A stretch of 64,000 bases of DNA, taken from positions 22,466 through 86,465 of IMG/VR virus record IMGVR_UViG_3300020049_005532. One strand, 5' to 3'. The position numbers and the translations under genes are program-made. Positions 7,184 to 59,184 of the stretch are shown here, in pieces; positions within the stretch are counted from its first letter, which is position 1, and the number at the start of each line of letters is the position of its first letter. The DNA comes from a virus. Taxonomy: Duplodnaviria; Heunggongvirae; Uroviricota; Caudoviricetes. The notes below the pieces were generated by a model. It was given only the letters and a program-made list of their open reading frames with translations. It had not been told where the DNA came from and searched no databases.

Positions 7184-7594
7184 ATGAAGGAATTCTTTGT
7201 AAAATTAGGCATAGCAGCCGTGGCTGCGCTGGCACCGATACATGCAGTATTGGTATCTGTCGGTGTTTTAGTATTTGTTGACATAGTTACTGGCGTTTGG
7301 TCAGCTAAAAAGCAAGGCCAAGCCATCTCATCTGCCAGACTAAGAGACAGCGTCACAAAATTACTAATTTACCAGGTGCTAATTATCACAGGATTTCTAG
7401 TAGAAACGCATCTTATCGAGGGATTAATCCCAATTGTTAAAATTGCAGCAGGTTTAATCGTTGCTGTAGAATTTGTTAGTGTTCTAGAAAACATGAATAA
7501 GATTCTAGGCAATGACATGTTTCAAATTATTATAGATAAACTTGGTAGTAAGAACGCAGTACGCAAAAAACGAGTAAAAAGGAAGAAAAAATGA
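7184..7594 (+). CDS. Small membrane protein with three predicted TM helices and a highly basic C-terminus (holin-like).
   Basis: Hydrophobic stretches LGIAAVAALAPIHAVLVSVGVLVFVDIV, LLIYQVLIITGFLV and IAAGLIVAVEFV. C-terminal KKRVKRKKK. Confidence 0.35.
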   Translation: MKEFFVKLGIAAVAALAPIHAVLVSVGVLVFVDIVTGVWSAKKQGQAISSARLRDSVTKLLIYQVLIITGFLVETHLIEGLIPIVKIAAGLIVAVEFVSVLENMNKILGNDMFQIIIDKLGSKNAVRKKRVKRKKK

Positions 7595-7956: not shown

Positions 7957-9186
7957 ATGGCAAGAGTACCTTGGCTTACAACGCAAGGACTAATTAATTC
8001 CGTCAAGCGCAAAATATCTATGCCGCTTGAGCAGGGAACTTTTAGTCTTGAAGACATGACTCATTTCCTTAATGAAGAAATGCAAATTTCTCAGGTTCCA
8101 TCTATTATGGAATTTTCTGAGGAATATTTTGTTTATAAAATTCGTGTCCCTCTAGTTGCAGGAAAAAGTCGTTATGACATCCCTGATCGTGCTATCGGCA
8201 TGAAGATACGAGATATCTTTATTGAAGACGAAAACGGCAATATGGGAGAAACCGCTCGTGTATCTCCTGATGAAAAAGCAACTTGGCAGTCCAACACTAC
8301 CAATTTTACACAGAATTATATCTACTATCTTGAAGGTAATCAAGTAGTATTTACTCCTACATCACAGTCCAATACGGGCTATGTTGTATTTTATATTTAC
8401 CTACGTCCAAATCAACTGGTTTTGGATACTCGTGCAGCTATTGCACAAAACTTTGTTAAAAAACTGACAGTAGAAACTAATCCAACTGCTGGTGATACAA
8501 TTACAATCAATGACGTTGTATATACCGCTGTGGCAAGTGGTGCAGTAGCTGGAGAATTTAACATTGGGGCATCTGCTTCGGCAACTGCATCTAATATCGC
8601 GTCAGCATTGCTTTCTCCGCTTACTGGATCAGCAACAACTGATGTCGTTAAGATTTCTTTTAGCGATGCAACTTATGAATTTGATTCGAGTTCGGCTAAC
8701 CTCGTTTTTGCCGATGAAATTGGTGTAAATTTTGACCAACTTCCAACTGAATGGGTTAATCCTGACACGCTTGAAACCGAATCTCTTTTCGGTCAAGGCG
8801 AATTAATTGACTTTCTTCAAACTAAACCTGGACATAGAACCTTTTCCTACGATCAGGAGCTGGTTGAAATTGACGGAACTGAGGGCTACTTTGATACAAT
8901 TCCGGAAGGATTTATTGTAGGAGATTATATTTGTTTAGCAAACGAATGTATCATACCGCAAATTCCTCCAGATCTTCATAACGGCCTTGCAGAACGCGCA
9001 GGCGCTCGCATTCTTTCGGCACTTGGCGACCAAGCCGGTCTACAAGCTTCTATGGCTAAAATTCAAGAAATTGACGGACGACAATCAACGCTTCTTAACA
9101 ACAGAGTCACTGGCGCGCCTATGAAGGTCACTAGCAAAAACTCAATGTTACGATCAAGCAAGCGTTGGAATCGACGTATTTACTAA
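7957..9186 (+). CDS. Virion protein (409 aa).
   Basis: Precedes the 1453-aa tail protein. No motif recognised. Confidence 0.45.
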   Translation: MARVPWLTTQGLINSVKRKISMPLEQGTFSLEDMTHFLNEEMQISQVPSIMEFSEEYFVYKIRVPLVAGKSRYDIPDRAIGMKIRDIFIEDENGNMGETARVSPDEKATWQSNTTNFTQNYIYYLEGNQVVFTPTSQSNTGYVVFYIYLRPNQLVLDTRAAIAQNFVKKLTVETNPTAGDTITINDVVYTAVASGAVAGEFNIGASASATASNIASALLSPLTGSATTDVVKISFSDATYEFDSSSANLVFADEIGVNFDQLPTEWVNPDTLETESLFGQGELIDFLQTKPGHRTFSYDQELVEIDGTEGYFDTIPEGFIVGDYICLANECIIPQIPPDLHNGLAERAGARILSALGDQAGLQASMAKIQEIDGRQSTLLNNRVTGAPMKVTSKNSMLRSSKRWNRRIY

Positions 9187-18556: not shown

Positions 18557-20751
18557 TGTCATGGCGAGATACTATTCAACCAATTGATTCGGCTCCGACC
18601 CAAGCCTCGTCTTGGCGCGACACTATTAAACCGATAGAAGAAGTGCCAAAATATTCATTTCTAGATGACATGAAAAGTGCAGCTTCCGGACTTGTGTCTG
18701 GAATTCCTAATATTCCAAGCAAGGGACTAAGTATGGCCCCTAAGGCTCCTGAACCGGATTATTCATTTGTTGACGATATGAGCATGGGCGCTGCTATTGC
18801 TGGAAATAGTATAATTGATAATACTCCGGCTTTAGGTCGAGGGGGCATTCAAAGCTTCTTAATGAACGGGGCTGACGAACTTGGTGGTCTTGGTATGAAG
18901 ACACTTGATCTCGGACAAGCTGGACTTAATAAAATAGGTTTAACGGGTCCAAGTCCTTCGCAAGTCAATCAACAACTTCTAGATCAAGGATTCACTGGCG
19001 ATCTTCGTACCGACATGTATCGTCAGGGTCAAGAGGAAACTGAAGCAGAATTTAAAGCTGCTGAACAGGAAAGTCCTTGGCTGTATGGTTTGGGACAACT
19101 TGGTGGCGCGGTAGCCTCTGGTATGATGACTGCTCCACTGCTTGCTGGCGCTGGCACGGCTATTGGTGCGTCTAAAGCTGGTTCTGCTGCAACACAAGCT
19201 CTTGGTCAAGCATTACCTGGAGCAGCTAAATATTTTTCTAGTGGTAAAACTCTTCCAAACGCATTGACTGCCGCAGGTAAAATGGCAGCAATAGCGGCAC
19301 CAGAGGGCGCTGTATTCGGCGCTCTTGGATCTGAGAATAATTTAATTGGTGCAAGTCCTGAAGAAAGAGCTAATTTCCGTGGCGATATCATTGAAGGTAC
19401 TGCAACGGGTTCATTGATTGGCGCGGGCATGGGTCTGGCTGGAGAGTTAGTTCCGGCTGCCGGTCGCGGCTTAATGAATTATTTTGATGACACAGTAGAA
19501 GATAGTAACGTTTTACGACAAGCGAAAGTTGCTTATAAAGAGGGCCAAGAGGGAATTAATTACGGCTCGACTAAGCAAGGCGAAGAGGGCCTCGAAGGCG
19601 TTTTTGATGCAACTGCTTCGCGAGAAAATAATGCCGCAGCAGATTTTTCTAATAGAATCCTAAAGGCAGATGAAGAACTTGGTAAAGCAGTAGGAAGATC
19701 TTTAGATTTGGCAACAGATGCCGGAGTAAAGGTTAAAATCAACAGTCAGATTAAACAATTGGCTAAAGATATTGATGCTTCAATTAACCAAAATCCTTTA
19801 ATCTTTGGTAACGGAAAAGCGGTTAAGACATTTAAAAATCTTGATATCAATGCAATGAGTCCAAGAGACATGAAAAGCGCGATTAATGATATCGACGAGG
19901 CGCTTACTATCTTAAAAAGAGACAACCGAGCCGATGTCGGATTTATGGTTCGTGACATGATAAAGCTACAAAAAGCTTTAAGTGAAGAACTTAAAACGCA
20001 AATTCCTCAGTATGCTAAAGCCGCAAAACGGTTTGCGTCTATGCGAGAAGCTATTCCGGAAACAATTACTGCCGGAGGTTCTCCAAGTAAATTTAGACCA
20101 AATTCTAATATGCTTGGTAACATGAAAGAAGCAGATTCCAAACTTTTTGGATCAATGTATAAGTTAGTTGGAGAAGCAACTAGGGAAGGCGCTCACGAAG
20201 GAAGCGAGACATTTGCGGCATTAATAAAAAATAGTAAGTTGTTAGAAAAAGAAGAACTTGCAAGGATTTTGCGTAACGAGATTACGCCAGATCAAACTGT
20301 ATTTAAAATGATGGGATTTGATGATGCGGCAAGTTTTATTAAAGCAGTTAAAAAAGAAGCAGATAAATCCGCTGCAATCCGTGGAGCACAGAAAACTGCT
20401 CTGATGGCAGAGGGAACTGACACAGTTTTACAGGGATTATCTAAAGGCGGATTAGCTAACGTTGGTCAAGGAGCTGTTCCAAAGACAGCTAACGCATTCG
20501 GTCGTTATTCAACTGGTATGAAAAAAGTCGGCAAGAGTTTATATTCAATGGGACCGCAACAATTAAACGAAGTTGCAGAAAAACTTATATCTAAACAATC
20601 AAGTTCTCAAATTGGACAAGCTTTACAAGATGCTATTACGAATAGCGATCAGGCCAAGAAGAACGCAATATTGTTTACGATAATGCAGAACCCGAACCTT
20701 CGCCTTGACCTTGTTGATCAAGTTCCTTCAGAAGATCAAGAAGCTCAATAA
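18556..20751 (+). CDS. G/A-rich protein (731 aa), candidate internal virion / ejection protein.
   Basis: ATGA-coupled to the upstream gene. Glycine/alanine-rich hydrophobic central segment. Confidence 0.4.
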   Translation: MSWRDTIQPIDSAPTQASSWRDTIKPIEEVPKYSFLDDMKSAASGLVSGIPNIPSKGLSMAPKAPEPDYSFVDDMSMGAAIAGNSIIDNTPALGRGGIQSFLMNGADELGGLGMKTLDLGQAGLNKIGLTGPSPSQVNQQLLDQGFTGDLRTDMYRQGQEETEAEFKAAEQESPWLYGLGQLGGAVASGMMTAPLLAGAGTAIGASKAGSAATQALGQALPGAAKYFSSGKTLPNALTAAGKMAAIAAPEGAVFGALGSENNLIGASPEERANFRGDIIEGTATGSLIGAGMGLAGELVPAAGRGLMNYFDDTVEDSNVLRQAKVAYKEGQEGINYGSTKQGEEGLEGVFDATASRENNAAADFSNRILKADEELGKAVGRSLDLATDAGVKVKINSQIKQLAKDIDASINQNPLIFGNGKAVKTFKNLDINAMSPRDMKSAINDIDEALTILKRDNRADVGFMVRDMIKLQKALSEELKTQIPQYAKAAKRFASMREAIPETITAGGSPSKFRPNSNMLGNMKEADSKLFGSMYKLVGEATREGAHEGSETFAALIKNSKLLEKEELARILRNEITPDQTVFKMMGFDDAASFIKAVKKEADKSAAIRGAQKTALMAEGTDTVLQGLSKGGLANVGQGAVPKTANAFGRYSTGMKKVGKSLYSMGPQQLNEVAEKLISKQSSSQIGQALQDAITNSDQAKKNAILFTIMQNPNLRLDLVDQVPSEDQEAQ

Positions 20752-21139
20752 TATCGTCTTCTGTAACCACATCCAAATCTTCATATTTCTCCAGGGTTAG
20801 ATTCTTATTCAGCCCTGGATACATCTCAATCAAATTCTGAATGTCCCTATTACGGGCGTTATTGCGATCAAAAGCGTCTTTCTTATCAGACTTCTTCTTT
20901 AGAATATTCTTCTTCTTACGCTTGGATTTAAATCCGGTATGAAGCCATTCTTCAGTAAAATCATTTAACCACTGTTTTTCTTCTGGACTTAGCTTATCTA
21001 GATAATCATAATCTAATTGCTTTTGTCTATTCAGTAGGTTCTTCTTCGGGTTTAGTGCGGGGTATTTTGAAGCGGATTGTTTCATGCCAGTTTTTTTGGG
21101 CGTCTTTCCAGTCTTCGATGTCTTGCTCTTGTTGCTCAC
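20675..21139 (-). CDS. Basic (Lys-rich N-terminus) hypothetical protein. The true start is probably an internal Met.
   Basis: ORF track only. Its 3' end overlaps the convergent + gene by 77 nt. Confidence 0.3.
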   Translation of the reverse strand: MSNKSKTSKTGKTPKKTGMKQSASKYPALNPKKNLLNRQKQLDYDYLDKLSPEEKQWLNDFTEEWLHTGFKSKRKKKNILKKKSDKKDAFDRNNARNRDIQNLIEMYPGLNKNLTLEKYEDLDVVTEDDIIELLDLLKELDQQGQGEGSGSALS

Positions 21140-21728
21140 TTAGGGACTTCCTTATATGTTCTTTGTCAATGCCAAACCAATGGGCCGTGGCATCTAGTTT
21201 TTTTCTTTGAAAATTAATTGACAGAAAGCGTTTAAATGCCTTAGCGTCTAAAAACACATTCTTGTTTGTATCTCTGCACCATTCTTGAAACATGTAATAA
21301 AACACATACCAAGGCAAGTAGTAATGTCCTTGAATGATATTTTTATCAGACAAGAACTGAGACATCTTTTTTTGAAAATTAAGTGATTTATTTTTACGAA
21401 TTGGTCGCTTTTCTAAAAGATCATAAAGCGATTTACCAATTTGCATTGTCGTAGTATTAAGTTTAAACCGACCAGATTCAAATGGCAAAAACTTACTAAG
21501 ACGAATAGTACAGGTATGTTGACTAATCTTCTCTTCTGTTGTAAAAAGATTAAAAAGTCTGTGAAGAATAACCGGACTAATTGGGTTAGACCCTGCTTCT
21601 AAGCCGTATGTGGCTATGAAGCGCATGGTTTCTTCAGTATATTTATCAGAAGGCAACTCTTCCGGTAAGTCGCCGTCTAACTTCTCTAAAAGTTCTTCAA
21701 CTGTTTGATTATGAAGACTTTTGTTCAT
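21027..21728 (-). CDS. Hypothetical protein (233 aa).
   Basis: ORF track. No motif recognised. Confidence 0.4.
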   Translation of the reverse strand: MNKSLHNQTVEELLEKLDGDLPEELPSDKYTEETMRFIATYGLEAGSNPISPVILHRLFNLFTTEEKISQHTCTIRLSKFLPFESGRFKLNTTTMQIGKSLYDLLEKRPIRKNKSLNFQKKMSQFLSDKNIIQGHYYLPWYVFYYMFQEWCRDTNKNVFLDAKAFKRFLSINFQRKKLDATAHWFGIDKEHIRKSLSEQQEQDIEDWKDAQKNWHETIRFKIPRTKPEEEPTE

Positions 21729-21731
21729 AGA

Positions 21732-22163
21732 TCAGAATTCCAAGCTGAGTGATAGTCCTGCTGATTGATCTCCCCATCCTTGTGCTCCGACAAAGAATGG
21801 GCCTAAGATGCGTCGCTCTACTTGAAAGCCGTAAACCGGAATGACATTAGTTAAGCTGGCTTTTGCCATAATACCAGCCTTCCATTGTGCCTTTTCAGAA
21901 ACAACCGTGACATCTTTACGATTCTCGGCATCACGACGAGATGTTTCCTTAGATGTTTCGTCAATAGAGGTAGTGGTTTCTTTTGTTCCATCAGGTCGAA
22001 CTACTTCTTTGATAACAGTCTTAACTTCGCGTTTAACAACTTCAACTTCTTTGATCACTTCAACTTCTTTAGTTACAACTTGAGGAGGCTGAACGTAACG
22101 TCCAACTGCGTATCCAACAAGTCCTAACAATAATGCGACAATAATCAGCGTCTTGGTATTCAT
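21732..22163 (-). CDS. Membrane-anchored / secreted protein with KEVEV repeats and an OMP-like C-terminus ending in Phe.
   Basis: N-terminal hydrophobic helix. Repeats KEVEVIKEVEVVKREVKTVIKEVV. C-terminus VYGFQVERRILGPFFVGAQGW...LSLSLEF is related to the C-terminus of the 45357..45809 protein. Confidence 0.45.
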   Translation of the reverse strand: MNTKTLIIVALLLGLVGYAVGRYVQPPQVVTKEVEVIKEVEVVKREVKTVIKEVVRPDGTKETTTSIDETSKETSRRDAENRKDVTVVSEKAQWKAGIMAKASLTNVIPVYGFQVERRILGPFFVGAQGWGDQSAGLSLSLEF

Positions 22164-22169
22164 ACAACT

Positions 22170-23069
22170 CTACTTTAGTGAACAGCGTTCTACGCCAGTT
22201 CGACAAGATTCAATTTTATCTGCCATACGTTCAAATTTAACGTTTTTGATAGCAGGAAAGGTAACGGTCTTAATTGTTACATCGTTAAGTCTTGTACCAG
22301 TTACTTTATTTGTTTTTTTAGCTACTTCAAAAAGACGGGTAGAGCCGTTTGCTTCAATCCATTTTAACTTATTCATTTCTTCGCTAACAAAGAGTTTCAA
22401 ATATTCAACTGGAACAACAAATCCGTGCGATACACCTCGGCCTACGCCAGCAAACGCCAAGCCGACCAATCGACCGTTGTCGTCAAAAACTCCGCTACCA
22501 CTATTACCTGGAGCTATCATAATACTAGTCGCCATTGAGTTGTAAGACTTAATGATTGGCATTCCCCCAAACCAGAAACAGAACATTGGACTTTCTTCCA
22601 TTTCTTCTGGAGAACATTTTTCAACTCCGGTAATCAGAGTGATCTCTAGATTTTTAGAGCTATATCCTTCTGTCACCATTGCCGGAAGAAGAAAAGGGTG
22701 TCCGGAAATACGGAGTTTAGAACCAAACTTCGGGGCTTCTTGTGCAAGGACGGTTTGATGTTTCAAGTTACCTACCACTTGAACCAAACAGATATCATGT
22801 ACTTTTGATCGTTTAAATCTTTCAATTGGATATTCGCCAATAGAAGTGGTTACTAGTCCGCCAGTCTCCATTCCATCACAGACGTGAGAGTTGGTTAGAA
22901 CTAGGCTGCTAGACTCGCCAGAACGAAAGATAACTCCAGACCCGCCACTTTCCTTAGCCTTGTCTGAAATCATCACAGTGACCGTCTGGAGATCTAATGG
23001 ATTGGTTGGTCGATTAACTTCAGCGTGAGCTGAGACAGCGAGAAACATTGGTAAAATATACTTAAGCAT
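22170..23069 (-). CDS. Secreted trypsin-like (S1 family) serine protease.
   Basis: Signal peptide MLKYILPMFLAVSAHA. TNSHV provides the His. GNSGSGVFDDNGRLVGL is the GDSGGP-type Ser motif. Confidence 0.75.
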   Translation of the reverse strand: MLKYILPMFLAVSAHAEVNRPTNPLDLQTVTVMISDKAKESGGSGVIFRSGESSSLVLTNSHVCDGMETGGLVTTSIGEYPIERFKRSKVHDICLVQVVGNLKHQTVLAQEAPKFGSKLRISGHPFLLPAMVTEGYSSKNLEITLITGVEKCSPEEMEESPMFCFWFGGMPIIKSYNSMATSIMIAPGNSGSGVFDDNGRLVGLAFAGVGRGVSHGFVVPVEYLKLFVSEEMNKLKWIEANGSTRLFEVAKKTNKVTGTRLNDVTIKTVTFPAIKNVKFERMADKIESCRTGVERCSLK

Positions 23070-23092: not shown

Positions 23093-23485
23093 TTATTCAT
23101 CTATAATATCATAACTAATTGATTTGTCAAGCTTTTTCTTGTCTCTGTTCATTTTTCTTTCAGTATTTTCAACTAAAGTCTTGACAGAGTGACAAGAGGA
23201 ACATACCACCTGATACCCTTCGGCCTTGCAAAATAGCCGATTTATAAACCCTTCCCAACCGTCCCAGCCGGTAACTGGAATTATAGGGTCCTTGTGATCT
23301 AATTGAATGTCTTTTTTGGAAAAAGTGCCTTGGCACGAAGCGCACTTATATATCCCTCTTGAGAGTCTAGCGTCGGTCATTGCCTGATTGCGAGGCGGCC
23401 ATCTGTAACTAGCTCTCCTCAATGAAGCAATGATAAACGCTTTTAATATCTCTTCGTGGGATTTAACCTTCTTCGGTTTCTTCAT
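23093..23485 (-). CDS. HNH endonuclease.
   Basis: CASCQG...LDHKDPI...GG...N...LFC..CH.VKT is a classic HNH core. Confidence 0.65.
   Translation of the reverse strand: MKKPKKVKSHEEILKAFIIASLRRASYRWPPRNQAMTDARLSRGIYKCASCQGTFSKKDIQLDHKDPIIPVTGWDGWEGFINRLFCKAEGYQVVCSSCHSVKTLVENTERKMNRDKKKLDKSISYDIIDE
23103..23130 (-). promoter_or_regulatory. Sigma70-like promoter TTGACA-N16-TATTAT reading into the protease gene.
   Basis: RC of 23125-23130 is TTGACA and RC of 23103-23108 is TATTAT. RBS AAAGGAA lies before the ATG at 23069. Confidence 0.35.
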
Positions 23486-26820: not shown

Positions 26821-26999
26821 GAGATTTCTTCCCAACCACCATCATTGAGCAATTCTTCTTCGGAATAACCCATGCCAGCAGGCCCTCCATCCCAAATCGA
26901 GTAGTCAAAATCAATTGGGATAGAAAAATTTACCAAACAAATTCTATATGTTAACTCATAATTTTTATTGGTAAAAGTGCTATTTTTAAAGATCTTCAT
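26817..26999 (-). CDS. Small hypothetical protein (60 aa).
   Basis: ORF track. Confidence 0.25.
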   Translation of the reverse strand: MKIFKNSTFTNKNYELTYRICLVNFSIPIDFDYSIWDGGPAGMGYSEEELLNDGGWEEIS

Positions 27000-27571
27000 G
27001 TTATCTCATCAATCAAATTTAAATCCAAAGCTTGTTCAGGCGTTAAAATAGTATCAAACTTTAATAATTCCTTAACCTGACGCTTGGTATATTTAGGCTG
27101 TTTTACCTGGATCTTTCTCAAGATAATGTCCTCAAATATCAGCTCGTCCTTTTCGTGTTGTTCCATCCAGCGTTTATTGATTTCTGGATGGTTCATCTCT
27201 AAGCCCATTTGACCAGTATGAAGCATCATTCTTGAGTTTTTGGACATGACTCTGTGATCGGCAGCTTGCAGTATCCAAGCAGCAATACTCATTACCGCGC
27301 CATAAGCTTTAATCGTCACATGGTTCTTACATTCGGTAATGGCGTCATAGATGGCCATGCCAGATCCCTGATCGCCTCCTAGCGAGTTTAAAAGGATTGT
27401 AATGGGCTTTCCTTCGGCTTGTGAAGAATGGTCTAGGACATGTAATGCCTTAATGACTTTAGCCGCAAGCTCTGCTGTCACTTCTTCGTGCATAATGTCA
27501 ATAGTTCTTGTTGGCACATAGATACCATGATCATAAAATTGGTCAACAAAGTCTTTATCGCTGCGTTTCAT
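26996..27571 (-). CDS. ClpP-like serine protease subunit (copy 1).
   Basis: ILLNSLGGDQGSGMAIYDAI...VTIKAYGAVMSIAAWILQAAD...RVMSKNSRMMLHTGQ parallels ClpP YINSPGG..GMSIYDTM..GQAASMGAFLL..NSRVMIHQP. Confidence 0.8.
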   Translation of the reverse strand: MKRSDKDFVDQFYDHGIYVPTRTIDIMHEEVTAELAAKVIKALHVLDHSSQAEGKPITILLNSLGGDQGSGMAIYDAITECKNHVTIKAYGAVMSIAAWILQAADHRVMSKNSRMMLHTGQMGLEMNHPEINKRWMEQHEKDELIFEDIILRKIQVKQPKYTKRQVKELLKFDTILTPEQALDLNLIDEIT

Positions 27572-33622: not shown

Positions 33623-33750
33623 AGCTTATAGACCAAAAGATACGGTCCATATATGCTGTTTTTAGGAAACACAATTTCCCACTCAATAAAACCTCGAGAA
33701 TTTAATTGCACTAAATAGCTACCAAATTTGTCGTATTTTATTTCAATCAT
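33619..33750 (-). CDS. Small protein (43 aa, MIEIKYDKFGSYLVQLNSRGFIEWEIVF...), a small-protein family member.
   Basis: Hand translation. ATG overlaps the polymerase stop (ATGA). Confidence 0.4.
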   Translation of the reverse strand: MIEIKYDKFGSYLVQLNSRGFIEWEIVFPKNSIYGPYLLVYKL

Positions 33751-36023
33751 TTGATATCCTTAAGCTTTTCTTGATTTTTCTTCAAAGAATAATTGATAAA
33801 ACGAGACTTTGTATCAATTACATTGTCAAAGATCTTGGACGAGTCGTGCAGTCGTTTAAGTAACTTGGTTTCGTCATAATCACCATCAAAGTTCTCAACT
33901 AGACACAGTTCCTTGTCTTTTTTGTAGAAAACATAGACCTTATCGCCCTCAGTATATTCAGATCCTTCAATTGCTCGACGCAGCTTTGCTTCGTTTTCTC
34001 GATCAGAAGTAAGTACCTTTTCGCTTATAGTTTTCTTGGATGACCAGCGTTTTAAGTCTGTTACAGCCAAGGCCTCTTTAATATATTTCTCGTATATTTC
34101 TTGGAAGTTTGTTTGGTCATTTAAAATGGCATCAATAATTTCAGAATGAAAGTCTTTAATCGCTCTTTCAGTTTTGCTAGATTTTAATGCGCTTCCTTTA
34201 ATTGAACGTTTTCCGTTGTTATACAAAACATAATTTTTAGCTTTGAACGCGATACACTTATCGTGAACCCCGTCATTACCGCCATCCTGCTCCCATTCCA
34301 TAAACTCCGGAGAGATGCTGCACAGCTCTTTGTGTAGAGCAATCTTCTCTTCTTCCGAAAAAGGGGATAGGTCTGGCTTACAAAAAGAAATCGAATCGGT
34401 ATCTGTTGGTCCAATTAAAAAATTATGAGACGGAATATTTAGTGGAATAGGCTCGCCGATACTTAGTATTCCACTGGCTTCCTCGTCTTTTCCAACAATA
34501 TCAAAAAACTTCTGTAGCCAGTAATCCTTCCCTTGGCCAGATGCCCAGCGCAATCCAAGGTCGATAACTTTTCTGGTTTCTTCTGTAATCTTAGCTGCAA
34601 TCTTTGGCGAGTTAAAGTTAAGGCCGGAAGTGTTAGTTACTCCGTAGCTCGAATTAATGAAGATTTTATTCGAGGCGTCAAGTTGTTTGTAATATACATC
34701 GCCGGTTTCCTTAAACTTCTTTTTCATGTCAAATCTTCGATTAGCAAAATAATTTACCATATGATAGAAATGGGCCTTTGGATCTTTCTTTTCGTCATAT
34801 AATTTGAATCGTAAAATTTGAGAAGGATAGGCTGATTTTAAATCTTCCTTGTATAGATTTTTATATATACCAGGAACAGCAAAGGAAATACCTCCCTCAA
34901 TGTGCATTCCAGTAAGATCTGTTTTCTCTGGAATAGAGTGCATGTCTTGCAGGTAAGACGCAACAAGCATTGAGTTAATTTGTGCTCCAGTTGCTGATAG
35001 CATCATATCACTAAATGTTTTTGGAATAGATTGATTTGTGAAAAAGCTAGCCGGAACCATTAAGTCAAATAGAGCTAATGCGTCATCGCTATCATCTTTG
35101 CAATATTCTTTAATCTTTTCCCATTCTTCGGGAATGAGGTAATTGTCACGAATTGTCGCAGCGTCGTAAAACGTTCGATCTTTCTTTTGTAATCCCTCTT
35201 GTTCGATAATTGCTTTTAATCCGTATGTCTCATACTTTTTATCAACAGAGTCATAGCGCATAGCGAGCATATATGTGTCACAAATTTCTCTGCCAAATAT
35301 ACGGAAGCGATTTACTTCCATGCTTCGAGATCCGTCAACTCGAAAGTCAACCTGTCTAGGCGAAAGATAGATTTCGCTACCATCTCGACCTAATGTAAGA
35401 TAAGTCCCGTCTCTACGACAAGAATCGTACAGATACTTTAAGTCGAAATTGAGAATATTGTGTCCGACAATAATACTCGGATTAACTTCTCTGACCCAAG
35501 CTGCCCAAGCTTCAGCCATTTGACCGCAAGAATCAAAATCTGTAAATTCAAATGTTTTTTTGATAATTTGATTATTTTTTCTTAGTGTATTCGAAATAAT
35601 TAATACTTTAGATTTGGAGCCGACTTTCAGTGAAGTTGTCTCTAAGTCAAAAGAAAGAATTGAAACTTCTTGTGGCTTCATTCCTTTAAAGTAACGATAG
35701 CCGTCTTTAACCATCAATGCTTCTTGTTGGTTATAAATAGAATAAATGTCATGATGTCGCCAGATATGACGAGCTTTGGTGAATTCTTGTTTATCCGTAA
35801 ACTGGATGCCGTACCGATAATGGAGAGAACCTTTTAGTTCCACAAACTTATTCGTAATCTTTTTATTGGACAAAATCCAATAACGATTTGAGACAATTTT
35901 TTCTGTAACAATTCCGTCTTTCTCAATAAACAAAACGGCCTTGTCGTCTTCTACTTCAATAGAAACAATGTTATCAGTTTTATCTTTTCCGTAAATTAAA
36001 TGATCAAGGTTTAAATTGCTCAT
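33747..36023 (-). CDS. Family B DNA polymerase with 3'-5' exonuclease domain.
   Basis: Exo I FDLETTS. Pol A DLKSAYPSQI. Pol B KIFINSSYGV. Pol C GPTDTDSI. Confidence 0.9.
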   Translation of the reverse strand: MSNLNLDHLIYGKDKTDNIVSIEVEDDKAVLFIEKDGIVTEKIVSNRYWILSNKKITNKFVELKGSLHYRYGIQFTDKQEFTKARHIWRHHDIYSIYNQQEALMVKDGYRYFKGMKPQEVSILSFDLETTSLKVGSKSKVLIISNTLRKNNQIIKKTFEFTDFDSCGQMAEAWAAWVREVNPSIIVGHNILNFDLKYLYDSCRRDGTYLTLGRDGSEIYLSPRQVDFRVDGSRSMEVNRFRIFGREICDTYMLAMRYDSVDKKYETYGLKAIIEQEGLQKKDRTFYDAATIRDNYLIPEEWEKIKEYCKDDSDDALALFDLMVPASFFTNQSIPKTFSDMMLSATGAQINSMLVASYLQDMHSIPEKTDLTGMHIEGGISFAVPGIYKNLYKEDLKSAYPSQILRFKLYDEKKDPKAHFYHMVNYFANRRFDMKKKFKETGDVYYKQLDASNKIFINSSYGVTNTSGLNFNSPKIAAKITEETRKVIDLGLRWASGQGKDYWLQKFFDIVGKDEEASGILSIGEPIPLNIPSHNFLIGPTDTDSISFCKPDLSPFSEEEKIALHKELCSISPEFMEWEQDGGNDGVHDKCIAFKAKNYVLYNNGKRSIKGSALKSSKTERAIKDFHSEIIDAILNDQTNFQEIYEKYIKEALAVTDLKRWSSKKTISEKVLTSDRENEAKLRRAIEGSEYTEGDKVYVFYKKDKELCLVENFDGDYDETKLLKRLHDSSKIFDNVIDTKSRFINYSLKKNQEKLKDIK

Positions 36024-44401: not shown

Positions 44402-45181
44402 CTATTTTGAAGTTTTATTTTTTTCATCAAAATTCAAATTTAAAAAAGGTAAAGCGTTTGTTCCCATAACAGTTGGCAGTACACCCGACCAACGCTCCAA
44501 AGCTTTCATTTGGAGAACTTCTGGTGTGATAGTAGATTTCATCAAACGTTGTGATTCAGCTTGACCTTTAGCTCGCTCAACATCAGCATTAGCCTGTTGT
44601 GTTGCCTTTTGTGCAACATATTCAGCTTGCTTTGCTTCTTGTTCAGCGATCTGCTTACGTTCAATTGCATCAGTAAACTCTTTAGAGAATGTCAAATTTA
44701 CAATCGACACATCTTGAAGAGTTACACCGTAATTTGCAAGACGAGTGCGAAGAAGTGTATCAATTTGCGTTTTAAGCTCTGTTCGCTTAGTCAAAATCTC
44801 TTCCGCTGTCATATTAGCTGTTGCCGCTTTAAGCGACTCACTAACTGCCGGAGAGATAACCTTGCGAAGAACCGAATCTTCGTCACCAGTATTTTTAAAT
44901 ACATTCATAACTTGATCTGGTGTGATAGACCAGTTCAAAGCTACTTCAGTTTTAATTTCTTGCATATCTTTTGATGCAGCCGACGTTTCAACATCAGAGC
45001 GCTGTGTTTGGATGTTTAGCGTTTTTGACCCATGAAAGAAGGGAATCCAAAGATAAGCTCCTGGTTCTCGAACTTCTGAACCAACCTTGCCAAGAGAGAT
45101 ACTAAATCCTCGTTCGCCAGGACCTACTACCGTACAAGCTGACATAAATACTGCAATTGCTGCGATAAAAATACTTTTCAT
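44402..45181 (-). CDS. SPFH/band-7 (prohibitin/HflC-like) lipoprotein.
   Basis: Lipobox ...VFMSAC. SPFH-like core LNIQTQRSDVETSAASKDMQEI...ALNWSI, followed by a coiled-coil AEQEAKQAEYVAQKATQQANADVERAKGQAE. Confidence 0.7.
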   Translation of the reverse strand: MKSIFIAAIAVFMSACTVVGPGERGFSISLGKVGSEVREPGAYLWIPFFHGSKTLNIQTQRSDVETSAASKDMQEIKTEVALNWSITPDQVMNVFKNTGDEDSVLRKVISPAVSESLKAATANMTAEEILTKRTELKTQIDTLLRTRLANYGVTLQDVSIVNLTFSKEFTDAIERKQIAEQEAKQAEYVAQKATQQANADVERAKGQAESQRLMKSTITPEVLQMKALERWSGVLPTVMGTNALPFLNLNFDEKNKTSK

Positions 45182-45357
45182 TTCAATTTCTCCAATTCTC
45201 GTTTTGTTACTATTCTGTATCTATTTTCTGGATAATCAGTCTTAAACTTTTCAATTTGAGCAAAGGCTTCGTTTAATTCCATCAATTCCGAAACCTCTAC
45301 CCACAAAATACTGTCACCAATCTTTTGTAGTGCTTGAATGACGACAGGTATTGACAT
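45178..45357 (-). CDS. Small hypothetical protein (59 aa, MSIPVVIQALQKIGDSILWVEV...), not in the track.
   Basis: Hand translation. ATGA-coupled at both ends. Confidence 0.3.
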   Translation of the reverse strand: MSIPVVIQALQKIGDSILWVEVSELMELNEAFAQIEKFKTDYPENRYRIVTKRELEKLK

Positions 45358-45809
45358 TAAAATCCAACTCCGAGATTAGCGCCTACTCCACCATTGGTGT
45401 CGATTTGGCCACCAAGATAGAGACGTTCGTCAAGAAGACGTTGGTACTGAAGCTGCCCTCCAATTCGGCTATCGTTTTCTACTGAAACAACACTCGGGTT
45501 GCTAGATGTTTTAAGGCCATTTTGACCATAAACAATACCAAGACTAACGATATTCTTATGTGCAACTGTTTCAGGAGGAAGAACCAATTCTTCTTCCGTT
45601 TCAATATCTGCAACTGGAAGAATCTTTAGTGTCTTTTCTTCTTCTCCGCGCTTTACTACAGCGTATTCGTCACTTGAGAAAGTGTAAGACTGGCCATCAG
45701 CCAATGTCACAACAATCTTTCCGCCACGAAGCTCTTTAGGAGCAGGACCTACAGCAAACGCTGATGTACTAAATACTAGGGCACATGCGATCATTAAAAA
45801 TTTATTCAT
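45357..45809 (-). CDS. Secreted beta-rich protein with an OMP-like C-terminus (…ANLGVGF).
   Basis: Signal peptide MNKFLMIACALVFSTSAFA. C-terminus IVYGQNGL...LYLGGQIDTNGGVGANLGVGF is related to the C-terminus of 21732..22163. Confidence 0.45.
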   Translation of the reverse strand: MNKFLMIACALVFSTSAFAVGPAPKELRGGKIVVTLADGQSYTFSSDEYAVVKRGEEEKTLKILPVADIETEEELVLPPETVAHKNIVSLGIVYGQNGLKTSSNPSVVSVENDSRIGGQLQYQRLLDERLYLGGQIDTNGGVGANLGVGF

Positions 45810-45810
45810 A

Positions 45811-46350
45811 TTAATTATTTTCCTTTTTTGATAAGTTTATTTTATAAAGTTGCAAAAATCCTTTTTTATTTGCTAATTTTTGATTTTTAAAGAGTCGGTT
45901 AGAATGGGTTTCGCTAATTTTAAAAAAATCATTAAAATATTTAATACTTAAAAAACACGCATCCATTTGAGATGTTTTAACAAAAACTTTTTTATTTTTT
46001 GCAATTCCGGCTTGCTTTGTTGAAAATTTTATATTTTTTTCTGTTCTAGCAAGATTGCGATTTACGTTAAAACTTAATATTCTTAAATTTTCGATTTTAT
46101 AATCACCAAACGGATCTATTCTATCTATAGAAGGAGTATCACCGTTCATATAAAAATCCAGAATAATTTGTTTTTGACTATCGCAGAATTTATAATATTC
46201 GTCTTTTGTCATCAACAATTTAATGCCTTTTTTTGCATAAGATTTATTGTTTTTTGTTAACTTACCAGTATTTGAACATCTCTTAAGAAGATTTCCCCAA
46301 GTGCTGCATTTAAAATATTCAATTGTTCCTCTAATTCTTGCGGCACCCAT
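45811..46350 (-). CDS. HNH (HNH_3-type) homing endonuclease.
   Basis: SIDRIDPFGDYKIENLRILSFNVNRN. Confidence 0.5.
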   Translation of the reverse strand: MGAARIRGTIEYFKCSTWGNLLKRCSNTGKLTKNNKSYAKKGIKLLMTKDEYYKFCDSQKQIILDFYMNGDTPSIDRIDPFGDYKIENLRILSFNVNRNLARTEKNIKFSTKQAGIAKNKKVFVKTSQMDACFLSIKYFNDFFKISETHSNRLFKNQKLANKKGFLQLYKINLSKKENN

Positions 46351-46359
46351 AATTCGTCC

Positions 46360-47436
46360 TTACTGAACCAAAATAAGATTATTTGCAATTGTTCCGTTTC
46401 CGCTAATCGAAAACGAACAGCTACCAGCGTCGGTCACAGCATATCCACCATCTGTCAGGATGTCAAGTGCAATCTTAACAGAAGTGACTACTGTTACATT
46501 ACCAGTTGAGTTACTTGGAACTGTGACGACTGTGCCTGGAATCTTTGTTGATTTAAACGGTCCAGAGTTAGGAGTACACTGTCCACCTGAGTTTGGTAGT
46601 TGAAGGTCGCCTCCGAAGGTCTGACACAAGTCTGGTGTAGTAAATGTCTGTGAAGACGTGCCAGTAACCACTTTGACGCTCTGTGTCATAACACGGTTCA
46701 TAACAGCATAGAACTTGCCGTTAATCTTCATAATACGCTCAGTAGAGCTTGGGGAGTTACATTTAAAGAGCTTTACACCCTCACGGTCAAGTTGTGCTTG
46801 TGTGGCAGCCTGTTGGGTAGCTAGGTCGTCAATTTGAGCCTGTAATGAGCTATTAACGTTAGCCAGGTCCAATGCTAGTTGTGTCACTTCCGACTGAAGG
46901 CCATCAACGTCTTCTTCAAGGTTATTCACTCGAATAGTCAAAGACGAAATCTTTGAGTTAGCAAGGTTAATTTTGTTATTAAGACTGTTGAGTTGAACTT
47001 GAACTGCCAGGTTCGTTAAAGACTGAAGGAATACCGCAGCACCCAGCGCATGTGAATTAGCGATGTCTCCGGCAATTCGATTAGCAATCTCAGTTTGAAG
47101 GTCTGCACGAAGAGTGTCGTCTCCAGCTACACGAGCAGCTTCTTCTTGAGCCAGCAAGTCTCGGAGTTCATCGTCAGTAGCAATACGAGCGTCCATTTCA
47201 GCTTGTAGCTCATCTGACAGTTGAAGATCGGCTTCTTGACGCGCTTCTGTTTCAAGGGCGAGAAGATTTCGAAGTTCTTCAAGGTGTTGAGTCTGGATTA
47301 AGTCGAGTTGATCATTAAGATCTGCTCGACGCTCAAGCTCTGTCACTCGATCATTGTTATGAAACACGGTTACTCGTTCAGTAGCACCACATCCAACTAC
47401 CAGCAAACTTGCCAAAAGACCAATTACTAATTTCAT
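46360..47436 (-). CDS. Lipoprotein with a long coiled-coil. Start taken at MKLVIGLLASLLVVGCG.
   Basis: Lipobox LLVVGC. Heptad-like LQ.EL.A repeats over about 200 aa. Confidence 0.5.
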   Translation of the reverse strand: MKLVIGLLASLLVVGCGATERVTVFHNNDRVTELERRADLNDQLDLIQTQHLEELRNLLALETEARQEADLQLSDELQAEMDARIATDDELRDLLAQEEAARVAGDDTLRADLQTEIANRIAGDIANSHALGAAVFLQSLTNLAVQVQLNSLNNKINLANSKISSLTIRVNNLEEDVDGLQSEVTQLALDLANVNSSLQAQIDDLATQQAATQAQLDREGVKLFKCNSPSSTERIMKINGKFYAVMNRVMTQSVKVVTGTSSQTFTTPDLCQTFGGDLQLPNSGGQCTPNSGPFKSTKIPGTVVTVPSNSTGNVTVVTSVKIALDILTDGGYAVTDAGSCSFSISGNGTIANNLILVQ

Positions 47437-47485
47437 TAACCCTCCTATTAGGTATAAACTTATATTATCACATTTTTTACAAAAG

Positions 47486-48367
47486 TCAAGACATATCTTT
47501 TGGATCTCTAAATCCATGCCAAATTGGTATTCTGGGCTTATCTAGACTGCCGTGTTTCTGATACCGATAGTGGACATTTCTCCCAATATACTTACCCATA
47601 TTATCCCATATTTCTTTTCTGAGTTCGTCAGTGAGACCTTTACCTGTTCCTAGGTTGAATACGTTACCGGCGTCGTCTCGACAAATAAAAGCTCCCAGTG
47701 TGTCCATAGGAACCATGTTATCTTTATGAGTTGACCTTTCTGTTCGACCAAATGCGTCTAAAGTTGGTGCGTTGGTATTATGCATTCTTTCTTCAAATCC
47801 AATCACTGTCGCTTCCCCGTCAACAAACGGTTTGATGGCAGTCAAGTATCCTTCTTTTAGAGTCGCCCTTCCGCATTTATATGGAGAACTTGGACTTCTA
47901 ATCATCGTCCCTTCGTGTCCCTGCTCTAAGTGTCTATCCATAATTTTATTTAATTGTTCTAGATTATTAGCAGTTTCGGCATACAAGGGTTTAGCAATTT
48001 TTATGATATCTGAATGACTGAAATCTTCAGCCAAGTGAATCTGTCTTTCGGCATAAGTTAAATTTATATCTCGAACACTATCAAATACTAGGTATTGAAA
48101 TTCTGGTTCTCCGTCTTCGGACATAACCATAGACTGAACGTCTTGAAATGTTTTACCGCAAACAATCTCTCCATCAAATCCATCTGGACAAACTGCTTCA
48201 ATTGAAGTTCTGATATGATTATTCGGAATAGGTTTAAACGAGCGGGTTAAAGCTTGACCTTTTACAACCAAGCATCTAATACCATCAATCTTAGGCGTTG
48301 CCATAACTGGAAAAATAATTTTATCCATAATGACATTTTTCGCGGCTAACATTGGTTTAGTTATCAT
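47486..48367 (-). CDS. ATP-dependent DNA ligase.
   Basis: Motif I TPKIDGIR. Motif III GFDGEIV. Motif IV EGTMIRS. Confidence 0.85.
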   Translation of the reverse strand: MITKPMLAAKNVIMDKIIFPVMATPKIDGIRCLVVKGQALTRSFKPIPNNHIRTSIEAVCPDGFDGEIVCGKTFQDVQSMVMSEDGEPEFQYLVFDSVRDINLTYAERQIHLAEDFSHSDIIKIAKPLYAETANNLEQLNKIMDRHLEQGHEGTMIRSPSSPYKCGRATLKEGYLTAIKPFVDGEATVIGFEERMHNTNAPTLDAFGRTERSTHKDNMVPMDTLGAFICRDDAGNVFNLGTGKGLTDELRKEIWDNMGKYIGRNVHYRYQKHGSLDKPRIPIWHGFRDPKDMS

Positions 48368-48760
48368 TTATTTCCTAATCTCATACGATTGCACTACGGC
48401 TGCACGAGTGATATTACAAGCAGGATAAGTAATTCCTGTTGCACATTTAAAATATCCCCGAGAATAAGATTCTTCCAATAGTTCGCCTGCTCGTTGTTCG
48501 CTAGTGAATATCTGCGTTCTTGGCTTCAAATCTATATTCAACCAAGAATCAACTTTTGTCTTTAAATCTTTAGTGCGCTGAATACTTCCATTTACATGAA
48601 ATTCAACACAAAAGGCAGGTTTTTTACTTTCTACTTCCAGCAATTCTTTTACGGTTAAATCCAAGTCGGCACGAATTTTATCTTCATGTTTTTGAGCTAG
48701 GCGAATACCAAGAAAGAAAACTCCGATAAGTAATAATACACCTATAATAGCAACAATCAT
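48368..48760 (-). CDS. Membrane-anchored hypothetical protein (130 aa).
   Basis: N-terminal TM helix MIVAIIGVLLLIGVFFLGI. Confidence 0.4.
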   Translation of the reverse strand: MIVAIIGVLLLIGVFFLGIRLAQKHEDKIRADLDLTVKELLEVESKKPAFCVEFHVNGSIQRTKDLKTKVDSWLNIDLKPRTQIFTSEQRAGELLEESYSRGYFKCATGITYPACNITRAAVVQSYEIRK

Positions 48761-57518: not shown

Positions 57519-57669
57519 TTTCTATTGCTCCTAAGTAAATGAACTCGATCAATTCTTCAATGCTTCGTTCTCTAGTTATTTTACCGGATTGGGCTTCTTT
57601 GTCAATAGCCCAAATAATTTTTGTTGGAATTTCTATTGTGACAGTTTGTTTTACGTCTTCTGGTTTCAA
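57463..57669 (-). CDS. Hypothetical protein (68 aa).
   Basis: ORF track. Confidence 0.3.
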   Translation of the reverse strand: MKPEDVKQTVTIEIPTKIIWAIDKEAQSGKITRERSIEELIEFIYLGAIENVETNSLREDSEQVPDEA

Positions 57670-58055
57670 AAATACTCCTCGACATTAATCGTTTCATCGT
57701 CTTGACGATAGTTTGTAAACAGCTGTTCTCCTTTGGCAATTGGTCGCAGTGTATAAAACTCCATCGTCCTTGCTACTGGGTTCAATCGGTAGCCAACGTT
57801 TGGTGTCTCGCTGTGATTATAAAGCTCTCCTAGCCCCATTACAAGACAATCTTGTCCTTTATCCTTATCAAAGACAAAAGTATAAAACTTAAGAGAAGTT
57901 TGATTGACAAGCTTTGTGTCTTCGGCTGACAAAGGAAGAACGGGATTAACTTCTAAGCATTGACCTTCGTCTATATAGTCGCTAGCCACCACACTACGTC
58001 CAAAAGTCGGCAAATTCTCTACTGTCAAAGTGTTTAGTCTGTAACCTTGGTTCAT
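57666..58055 (-). CDS. Hypothetical protein (129 aa).
   Basis: ORF track. Confidence 0.35.
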   Translation of the reverse strand: MNQGYRLNTLTVENLPTFGRSVVASDYIDEGQCLEVNPVLPLSAEDTKLVNQTSLKFYTFVFDKDKGQDCLVMGLGELYNHSETPNVGYRLNPVARTMEFYTLRPIAKGEQLFTNYRQDDETINVEEYF

Positions 58056-58446: not shown

Positions 58447-58732
58447 TGATCACCTCTAAAAATTCAATAATGCGCTCGTTTGGGTTAGTAAGTTCTCTTT
58501 TTGCTTCTTCAAAAGTTGAAGAGATAGAAAATCGACTAAGCTTACCTTCTGACTCAATCATGTAAACCTTTCGTGGCTCCTTCTTCTCTCGCCACTCGCC
58601 GAAGACTAGTTCGTCGGCAAACCCAGTGCCACAAGTGTCTTTGGAGAAGTTTTCTTTTTTCCACTCATGTCCGAATGGACTAATCACAGTCTTCCCTTGC
58701 ATCGCTAACTCTCGTGCTTCGATTATGTTCAT
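58439..58732 (-). CDS. Hypothetical protein (97 aa).
   Basis: ORF track. Confidence 0.35.
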   Translation of the reverse strand: MNIIEARELAMQGKTVISPFGHEWKKENFSKDTCGTGFADELVFGEWREKKEPRKVYMIESEGKLSRFSISSTFEEAKRELTNPNERIIEFLEVINE

Positions 58733-59184
58733 TTGCTTGCCTTTCTGTAAACTCCCGCAATTTTTCTTCCATATTTAATCTTATGCTTTAAGGTTTTTGA
58801 ATGATATCGGACCAAATAATCCGAATGTTTTTTCTTTATTTCGCTAAGCAACTTTGCTGCACATAATGCCGACCCTTCTGGACTTTCTAAGTTATACTCA
58901 ACACATTTCGAATGATTTACTTCGTTGATCTGAAATAGTCCTACATCCATTGTACCATCTTTGTTTGGCTCTTGTCTAGTGTATTTACCTAGTCCAGTTT
59001 CAACAATTGCAATGGCTGTCAATTCTCTTGCGCTTATTCCATAAGTTTTCGCGGCGTGAACAATTGCCTTAACAACTTGCTGACTAGGTTTAAACCCATT
59101 GGCTTTTGCCATATGTAAAACTTTGTCTTCTTTTGCTTGACTAACGCTTGAGATAAGCAAAAGTCCTAGTGTTAAGTTTTTCAT
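58729..59184 (-). CDS. Secreted lytic transglycosylase (SLT domain), a candidate endolysin.
   Basis: Signal peptide MKNLTLGLLLISSVSQA. SLT core AIAIVETGLGKY...DVGLFQINE. Confidence 0.7.
   Translation of the reverse strand: MKNLTLGLLLISSVSQAKEDKVLHMAKANGFKPSQQVVKAIVHAAKTYGISARELTAIAIVETGLGKYTRQEPNKDGTMDVGLFQINEVNHSKCVEYNLESPEGSALCAAKLLSEIKKKHSDYLVRYHSKTLKHKIKYGRKIAGVYRKASK

Follow-up and report, generated by a model that had tools for sequence, protein, structure and literature searches.

A phage-encoded PDZ-less HtrA-like protease and an adjoining protein with an outer membrane-type C-terminus as possible modules of an envelope-acting cassette in uncultivated phages

To our knowledge, the breach of the outer membrane (OM) by tailed phages is well understood only where it is brought about by spanins or by one cationic peptide, and in many phages that infect Gram-negative hosts no spanin can be recognised. 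The anchors of the trimeric autotransporters YadA and Hia contribute four C-terminal strands per chain with an aromatic end, the barrel being closed by oligomerisation; phage lambda Lom is a phage-encoded small OM barrel; and in the autotransporter proteases (the S6 SPATEs and the S8 proteins NalP and SphB1), a protease of trypsin or subtilisin fold is tied to an OM beta domain. Here two adjacent genes on the minus strand of a 64,000-nucleotide stretch of tailed-phage DNA (IMG/VR record IMGVR_UViG_3300020049_005532, positions 22,466 to 86,465; this whole stretch is referred to as the window, and coordinates are those of the window unless a related locus is named) are described, one for an exported serine protease (22170-23069) and the other for a 143-amino-acid (aa) protein (21732-22163) that combines an N-terminal hydrophobic helix with four C-terminal strands of OM protein (OMP) type. 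We know of no characterised counterpart of such a combination of N-terminal anchor and OMP-type C-terminus. Both genes are tentatively regarded, with a probability of about 40%, as modules of a variable, envelope-acting and lysis-accessory cassette.

The protease, of 299 aa, matched Pfam Trypsin_2 (PF13365) with 58.8 bits (cut-off 27.6; E=1.3e-15), and 112 homologues, each of about 300 aa, were found in metagenomes. In an alignment of 39 sequences, with identities of 30-65%, His62, Asp92 and Ser190 form invariant columns, and in profile alignments against the PDB the three residues pair with the catalytic residues of HtrA/DegP. The codon of His62 (22884-22886) lies in the motif TNSHVC and aligns with the HtrA His, that of Asp92 (22794-22796) lies in HDICL (HDxC in the family) and aligns with the HtrA Asp, and that of Ser190 (22500-22502; checked on the nucleotide sequence) lies in GNSGSG, which aligns with GNSGG of HtrA. 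The AlphaFold2 (AF2) model, with a pLDDT of 82.7, was matched by Foldseek to the protease domains of DegP, DegQ, DegS and MucD with a probability of 1.00 and E values of about 1e-11; the staphylococcal Spl/V8 proteases were next closest in the AF2 and PDB-profile comparisons. The enzyme is thus predicted to be catalytically intact.

A putative Sec signal peptide of 16 residues (MLKYILPMFLAVSAHA, followed by EV; 23022-23069) was read from the sequence, with the cleavage predicted after AHA (AHA/E). An N-terminal hydrophobic export segment is present in all 39 aligned homologues, in the form of a cleavable signal peptide, a lipobox or a longer membrane anchor, and a lipobox-like motif was found in 33 of the 112 homologues. 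Since export is conserved in the homologues though the type of signal varies, there is good evidence that the protease acts outside the cytoplasm. Cys64 and Cys94, which stand beside the catalytic His and Asp, are invariant among the 39 sequences, and Cys152 and Cys164 are nearly so; these pairs would fit disulfide bonds formed in an oxidising periplasm. An earlier, model-made reading of the same DNA (the first-pass annotation) had proposed a phage-encoded, secreted S1 protease with the motifs TNSHV and GNSGSGV. Both motifs are present and hold His62 and Ser190, respectively, and the proposal agrees with the Trypsin_2 match, the invariant triad, the DegP-like fold and the export segment of every aligned homologue.

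With the HtrA family (DegP, DegQ, DegS and MucD; MEROPS S1C), the protease shares the chymotrypsin-fold domain, the His-Asp-Ser order, the GNSG(G/S) motif and the periplasmic location, the last being predicted here. It differs from this family in being phage-encoded, in having conserved Cys beside the catalytic His and Asp, and in carrying, instead of PDZ, a C-terminal extension of about 70 aa with a conserved FPAIK motif and a Cys pair. No PDZ domain was detected by Pfam at E<=0.1, and the C-terminal 70 residues are helical, at low confidence, in the AF2 model, unlike PDZ. Against the NCBIfam HtrA models (degP_htrA_DO, HtrA, DegQ and DegP), the best score was 38.7 bits, from partial domain matches only, compared with a cut-off of 416.2. 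Because PDZ is lacking and the NCBIfam score is about one-tenth of the cut-off, the protease falls outside the HtrA family in the strict sense, and is a new PDZ-less member of the S1/HtrA-like clan.

The first-pass annotation had also called the protease an unusual phage cargo. This holds for deposited phages, as no relative was detected by tblastn in 50,697 GenBank phage records, but not for uncultivated viruses, since orthologues are present on at least 70 IMG/VR viral contigs and other phage HtrA-like proteases are included in BFVD, for instance that of Rhizobium phage AF3. In the literature, no characterised phage HtrA-like protease was found, nor any report on HtrA- or trypsin-like phage proteases in lysis. 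The identity of a prohead protease was rejected because of the export signal and of the presence of a separate ClpP-family gene (26996-27571). A role in a defence system was likewise rejected; PADLOC gave only weak similarity of the protease domain to RT-Protease and LmuA variants (E values between 1e-7 and 3e-6).

The 143-aa protein (21732-22163, minus strand) is composed of four parts. A hydrophobic segment at about residues 5-22 (22098-22151), modelled by AF2 as a helix over residues 3-24 with a pLDDT of about 90, represents a signal anchor or a long signal peptide, and is directly followed in the family by a G-R-Y-x-x-P motif. Next comes an amphipathic beta region rich in Val, Glu and Lys, with Val/Ile and Glu/Lys at alternating positions on either side of a conserved R-P-D-G-T-K turn, and then a polar linker of variable length. 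The C-terminal domain (residues ca. 92-143; 21735-21890), which ends in GLSLSLEF, consists of four strands modelled with a pLDDT above 90 and represented in the family by KPQW..., YGxxVERRILGP, FVG... and xGLSLxLEF. Among 240 members of the family, the terminal Phe is kept in 222, the positions -3, -5, -7 and -9 are hydrophobic and position -8 is Gly; 237 of the 240 are free of Cys. The neighbour with a transmembrane or signal segment, KEVEV repeats and an SLSLEF end, as first described, was therefore found with all these elements, and its OMP-type C-terminus is a conserved property.

A profile built from 47 homologues retrieved 4,111 cluster representatives at E<=1e-3 from 1.84 billion proteins, and almost all of the 150 top-ranking matches listed have lengths of 128-161 aa. 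This family of more than 4,000 clusters is represented in uncultivated phages only, and tblastn, with the window protein and a central family member as queries, detected none in the 50,697 GenBank phage records. Nothing in Pfam, PHROG or NCBIfam, and nothing among the PADLOC defence models, was matched by the 143-aa protein or by a related 150-aa protein encoded elsewhere in the window (see below); both families are undescribed in the libraries searched.

With respect to topology, the apolar N-terminal run has a median of 16 residues in the 143-aa family versus 12 in the signal peptide-bearing 150-aa family, and the hydrophobic segment lacks a polar c-region and is longer than a typical signal peptide. 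We lean towards a protein that may stay uncleaved in the inner membrane. The earlier label "secreted" is thus retained as far as an export-type N-terminus is concerned, but the protein is probably not simply secreted and is possibly anchored in the inner membrane. The same applies to its barrel-like C-terminus: the AF2 model contains four OMP-type strands with a beta-signal, its best structural likeness is to OM barrels and it resembles one half of a barrel of the OmpA/OprF type, but a closed barrel of eight or more strands within a single chain is not formed. Since only four strands are available, the protein is not a self-contained barrel and would have to oligomerise.

The unimolecular spanin gp11 of phage T1 has one transmembrane domain (TMD) and a periplasmic part that is rich in beta structure and free of Cys, and it depends on oligomerisation (PMC7830690). 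The 143-aa protein resembles gp11 in being a small single chain with one putative TMD, a beta-rich Cys-free part and a proposed contact with both membranes. It differs in that the TMD is N-terminal (reversed polarity), no lipobox is present and the OM end is a beta-strand unit instead of a lipoylated Cys, so that the layout of unimolecular spanins, an N-terminal OM lipoprotein signal with a C-terminal TMD, is not found; in addition, there is no sequence similarity, and the gene in the window is not located beside a holin or endolysin gene. Four C-terminal strands and an aromatic end are shared with the YadA/Hia anchors, but neither a match to YadA_anchor (Pfam, E<=0.1) nor a coiled-coil stalk leading into the barrel was detected; the upstream part is short and beta-rich, with a beta hairpin instead of a coiled coil ahead of the strands in the AF2 model, and the N-terminus looks more like an anchor than like a cleaved signal peptide. 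The small eight-stranded OM barrels (Ail/OmpX/OmpA-N and Lom) are similar in strand length, alternating hydrophobic residues, polar interior residues and the terminal Phe, but the 143-aa chain has half the number of strands, no Pfam OMP match, and an extra N-terminal anchor and linker.

Both open reading frames (ORFs) were confirmed on the minus strand, in the order protease (23069 to 22170), a gap of 7 nucleotides (nt), the 143-aa ORF (22163 to 21732), a gap of 3 nt and a 233-aa ORF. The pair is located on the same strand as the dUTPase and exonuclease genes, shortly after them. The start of the protease gene is preceded by AAGGA, a good Shine-Dalgarno sequence, and a sigma-70-like promoter match (TTGACA-16-TATTAT with TG; 11/12) lies directly upstream at 23103-23130 on the minus strand; such matches are no commoner in this region than in shuffled sequences, and this one is only a hint. 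Downstream of the 143-aa gene, two genes are kept: that of family f6 (21027-21728, minus strand), which is syntenic in 16 distinct protease loci, and that of family f14 (154 aa; 20675-21139, minus strand), which matched f14 of the related loci by hidden Markov model (HMM) with E=6e-30. The window copies of f6 and f14 matched nothing in PHROG, Pfam or NCBIfam.

The genomic context was surveyed for 57 distinct orthologues of the protease, drawn from IMG/VR and from further assemblies. In the IMG/VR locus scan, a single protein query gave nothing and a broad alignment of the 143-aa family was too variable, while narrower alignments worked. In L001-L004, the loci of close relatives, the order is dUTPase, f7, the HNH-like f3, protease, 143-aa gene, f6 and f14, ending opposite the convergent structural genes. 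The gap between protease and 143-aa genes, 7 nt in the window, is 0-2 nt in these loci, and such very short gaps suggest co-translation. Altogether, a 143-aa family gene adjoins the protease gene in 8 of the 57 loci, with f6/f14 downstream in four of these. The slot between protease and f6/f14 is occupied in 14 of the 57 loci by f11, for which the partner f35 was detected in seven, and throughout the 57 orthologues the 143-aa family and the f35/f11 pair are mutually exclusive, never both being present in this slot. The f35 protein (about 90 aa) carries an N-terminal TMD and a charged helix; f11 (about 135 aa) carries a signal peptide, a disulfide-type N-domain with a Cys pair, a coiled coil and a C-terminal TMD. 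No match to this pair was obtained in PHROG, Pfam or NCBIfam, and it may represent an undescribed spanin-like pair. An alternative cassette composed of a 2-TMD protein of about 107 aa, a membrane-anchored protease, f35 and f11 was observed in L022-L027, L036, L048 and L062 (for example, L025 7594-9453).

Other genes of possible relevance to lysis are recurrent near the protease orthologues. A small, holin-sized 2-TMD protein is encoded directly upstream, with a gap of 0-25 nt, in 14 of the 57 loci. These proteins are of three subfamilies (hA, hB and hC), none of which gave a library match above chance; for the L115 copy, PHROG gave only a weak hit (E=0.007), to which no function is assigned. 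In 10 of the 57 loci, a phage lysozyme of family GH24 (Pfam E=6e-42) is adjacent to the protease gene or within 1.3 kb of it. The trio of 2-TMD protein, S1 protease and 143-aa protein was found in two unrelated neighbourhoods, L132 and L133/L134, in the latter of which it stands ahead of genes for a Holliday-junction resolvase and ribonucleotide reductase; this recurrence suggests that the trio moves as a unit. The position taken after a 2-TMD protein in some relatives is that of an endolysin, and the protease was for this reason considered as the endolysin itself; this was judged unlikely, because lysozyme, SLT or M15 candidates co-occur and substitution by S8 or ClpP-type proteases points to a protein substrate.

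The 143-aa and 150-aa genes (together, half-barrel genes) are also located beside proteases of other folds. A 2-TMD protein, a 143-aa homologue and a secreted S8 subtilase are encoded in succession in L066-L075, and an S8 lipoprotein comes next after a 150-aa homologue in L101 and L106. These S8 subtilases (PF00082), secreted or lipoprotein, are of about 231-238 aa and are encoded directly downstream of the half-barrel genes (L066 2884-3579, minus strand; L101 5998-6714; L106 6380-7093). The 143-aa homologue of L112 stands after a divergent Trypsin_2 protein with a TM anchor, and in L120-L122 and L129 a ClpP-family protease is encoded upstream of the half-barrel gene, the L121 copy having a signal-like N-terminus. 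As these loci had been fetched through the half-barrel families, the count of adjacency is unbiased for proteases: of 29 half-barrel genes, 7 stand immediately beside a gene for a serine protease, compared with about 7% expected (binomial p of about 0.003, shared ancestry not being corrected for). The arrangement is reminiscent of the autotransporter proteases in that S1 or S8 protease genes adjoin half-barrel genes, but here protease and beta unit are separate chains, the strands are four and not twelve, a passenger-type beta helix is lacking and there is no sign that the phage protease crosses the OM.

The reverse counts are large: 22 of the 29 half-barrel genes have no adjacent protease, and 47 of the 57 protease lineages have no nearby 143-aa gene. 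The protease and 143-aa genes are therefore not obligate partners, each being mostly found without the other. These counts, together with the great diversity of the neighbourhoods and the interspersed HNH genes, are what would be expected if the two were independent accessory genes, standing side by side in a hypervariable region that takes up envelope morons and homing HNH genes, with no functional link. We regard such a chance assembly as improbable, since adjacency is above background by the above test, is repeated across three protease folds, with either gene standing first, and is accompanied by the very short gaps that suggest co-translation.

A further explanation follows from the resemblance to DegP, DegQ, DegS and MucD, which are the closest matches in structure as well as in sequence and which degrade or sense unfolded OMPs. 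The phage protease might clear unassembled phage OMP-like proteins or manipulate the sigma-E/DegS response, the 143-aa protein being its client or a decoy. HtrA proteases prefer cleavage sites of Val/Ile type, and the linker of the 143-aa protein is rich in Val/Ile; the aromatic OMP-type C-terminus of both half-barrel families would also suit such a role. PDZ, however, is the module by which OMP C-termini are read in DegS and DegP, and the phage protease is devoid of it; the S8 and ClpP-type folds in the partner position argue against an HtrA-specific mechanism, and most protease orthologues have no half-barrel neighbour. Quality control or stress manipulation is for these reasons considered distinctly unlikely.

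The lysis-accessory cassette is favoured on account of the slot exchange with f35/f11 and of the lysozymes and holin-sized proteins near the protease in relatives. Also in its favour are the recurrent trio, the proteases of other folds in the partner position, a predicted topology that amounts to the T1 gp11 layout turned round, and the lack of a small o-spanin-type lipoprotein in the window. The first-pass annotation had offered envelope remodelling, superinfection exclusion and lysis timing without discrimination; the synteny in relatives favours lysis or envelope breakdown among them, without proving it. The cassette would be located at the end of the leftward gene block in a large group of phages that are uncultivated and infect Gram-negative hosts. 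Within it, the protease would be a Sec-exported periplasmic endoprotease with an HtrA-like domain and no PDZ, and substitution by unrelated protease folds indicates that it would act on proteins and not on peptidoglycan. The 143-aa protein would be tethered in the inner membrane by its N-terminal helix, with the C-terminal four-strand unit and its OMP assembly signal reaching the OM, where the units would oligomerise to give 8 strands as a dimer or 12 as a trimer. At the end of infection the cassette would break down the host envelope, the 143-aa protein serving the OM step in the manner of a spanin or OM disruptor, and the protease cutting either the tethers between OM and peptidoglycan of the host or the Val/Ile-rich linker of the 143-aa protein. 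A bolder form of this proposal, to which we give little credence at present, is that the 143-aa family constitutes a new class of single-chain, envelope-spanning lysis protein, an inverted counterpart of T1 gp11 with a barrel as its anchor, that forms a BAM-assembled oligomeric barrel and is triggered or completed by exported proteases of interchangeable fold, S1, S8 or ClpP-type, which would cut its linker or the links between host OM and cell wall.

The pair closes the block of replication and nucleotide-metabolism genes and may have its own sigma-70-like promoter, which suggests a different timing of action. The two proteins might serve envelope remodelling or superinfection exclusion well before lysis, the protease trimming host receptors, pilus or transport components, and the 143-aa and 150-aa proteins with their lipoprotein partners being inserted in the OM to alter the surface or block competing phages. 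Export through Sec needs no holin; many further envelope proteins typical of moron or exclusion functions are encoded (the SPFH, coiled-coil and metallopeptidase lipoproteins); 143-aa homologues are often located in replication modules, after a helicase gene; and the 150-aa family is partnered by coiled-coil or collagen-like lipoproteins, not by lysis genes. Such early action is nevertheless judged somewhat unlikely, as it accounts neither for the GH24 lysozymes and 2-TMD holin-sized proteins that repeatedly adjoin the protease nor for the mutually exclusive slot exchange with f35/f11, and as nothing resembling the known exclusion proteins, or the PADLOC models beyond the generic protease domain, was detected.

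Several points weigh against the lysis-accessory cassette. Its main weakness is that the pair stands outside any recognisable lysis cassette in this genome: in the window it lies away from the holin (7184-7594), the SLT (58729-59184) and the M15_3 site beyond the end (described below), and no 2-TMD gene precedes the protease. Position after the dUTPase and exonuclease genes suggests early or middle expression, not late. The absence of a nearby 143-aa gene from 47 of the 57 protease lineages, noted above, counts in the same direction, as does the finding that many 143-aa homologues follow primase or helicase genes with neither a protease nor a lysin nearby. The small membrane proteins match no known holin or spanin family in the libraries scanned, and a canonical spanin may sit in the approximately 22 kb of genome inspected only in part. 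If the N-terminus of the 143-aa protein were a cleaved signal peptide, the envelope-spanning topology would be abolished, and the barrel itself is hypothetical, the AF2 model being that of a single chain.

Three features for which cultured phages offer no characterised precedent are united at the locus: an unannotated phage family of very large size, with an inner membrane-type N-terminus and an outer membrane-type C-terminus; a recurrent partnership of that family with exported serine proteases of different folds; and a positional exchange with another membrane-protein pair beside endolysins. If the lysis role is true, these would represent a protease-assisted, barrel-anchored route to OM disruption and a natural barrel of four-strand subunits outside the autotransporters; if the proteins act earlier, they would represent a new kind of phage-directed OM remodelling. 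In either case, the 143-aa family can now be defined and tested.

The related 150-aa protein (45357-45809, minus strand; 28 homologues) is a secreted protein with a canonical signal peptide, of which the AxA cleavage site is followed by VGP, and a related four-strand C-terminus ending in GVGF. Its terminal Phe is invariant in an alignment of 25 sequences and is kept in 27 of the 28 homologues. The first-pass annotation had considered the C-termini of this protein and the 143-aa protein to be paralogous. Pairwise BLASTP did not detect the relation (E=1.5), but comparison of the two family alignments by hhalign did (probability 95%, E=3.5e-8), the match covering the last 36 residues. A common plan is recognised in the two proteins, that is, an export signal, a small N-domain, a variable linker and four strands ending in Phe.

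As a rule, a lipoprotein with trimer-type repeats is encoded immediately ahead of the 150-aa family (in the window, 45357-47517, minus strand; also in L101, L102-L106, L108, L029 and L041). The usual upstream partner is represented in the window by a coiled-coil lipoprotein (46360-47436, minus strand; lipobox LVVGC), from which the 150-aa gene is separated by an HNH-like gene (45811-46350); lipoproteins of this coiled-coil type stand directly ahead of the 150-aa homologues in L101-L104 (L101 4427-5944). The trimer-type lipoproteins contain either a long coiled coil (..GC..RVIHNNDRVxELERRAxLNDQL) or collagen-like G-x-y repeats, Pfam Collagen being confirmed in L029 and L080. In L080 (5077-6130), the collagen-like lipoprotein precedes a homologue of the 143-aa family and not of the 150-aa family. 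The 150-aa gene and the lipoprotein gene look like a separate two-gene OM module.

At least seven exported proteins were counted in the window by a heuristic sequence scan, in line with the earlier statement that at least seven phage proteins are sent to the host envelope, their export being predicted. The large envelope-targeted set that had been listed is present: an SPFH lipoprotein, the coiled-coil lipoprotein, a PhageMetallopep lipoprotein (59181-59627) and an SLT with a signal peptide (58729-59184). The SPFH/Band 7 lipoprotein (44402-45181, minus strand) matched Pfam with E=9e-36 and PHROG 200 ("lipoprotein") with E=3e-51. SPFH proteins are classically partnered by proteases of the ClpP/NfeD class, and the ClpP-family gene is encoded in the same window as the SPFH lipoprotein.

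As to known lysis genes, a Phage_holin_4_1 holin is encoded on the plus strand within the structural block, just ahead of a gene with an SU10 adaptor-like domain (7957-9186, plus strand), which is an unusual site for a holin. A near-identical JGI contig (Ga0206650_1000007; 86,167 bp) runs about 10 kb beyond the window end, and there, at L135 139-1107, about 10 kb past the end, a Peptidase_M15_3 gene (136 aa) is convergent with that of a 90-aa 2-TMD protein with a coiled-coil tail; the phage probably has its canonical endolysin and holin genes here. No small lipoprotein of o-spanin type was found in the 64-kb window, the lipobox ORFs being three larger lipoproteins only; no PHROG spanin hit was obtained among the proteins of the window, which was scanned in part, and of the related loci; and a two-component Rz/Rz1 arrangement, i-spanin plus small OM lipoprotein, is absent near the pair. 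A 130-aa protein (48368-48760, minus strand) with an N-terminal TMD and an otherwise helical chain has an i-spanin-like shape, with no adjacent small lipoprotein and no PHROG match.

Within this phage-like segment, the plus-strand structural genes occupy positions 1 to 20751, and from 20675 onwards a long block of genes for replication, nucleotide metabolism and accessory functions lies on the minus strand. The convergent 3' ends of the 731-aa structural ORF and the f14 ORF overlap by 77 nt (20675-20751), with no terminator-like site between the two gene blocks. The host is indicated to possess two membranes by the lipoboxes and OMP signals encoded. The region had no megablast match among the GenBank phages, and neither a cultured relative nor a host could be assigned. 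Two weak host links were obtained, one protease orthologue being located on a 118.9-kb contig binned with a metagenome-assembled genome (MAG) of Pseudobdellovibrionaceae and another on a short contig of a Flavobacteriaceae MAG; nothing relevant was found in the literature on Bdellovibrio phages. The family B DNA polymerase (33747-36023, minus strand) is about 23% identical to its best match from cultured phages (Salinibacter phages), and the lineage is very distant from any isolate. A SET (lysine methyltransferase) domain is present in a 129-aa ORF (57666-58055, minus strand), as given by the precomputed Pfam annotation of the identical JGI contig (L135 13276-13665).

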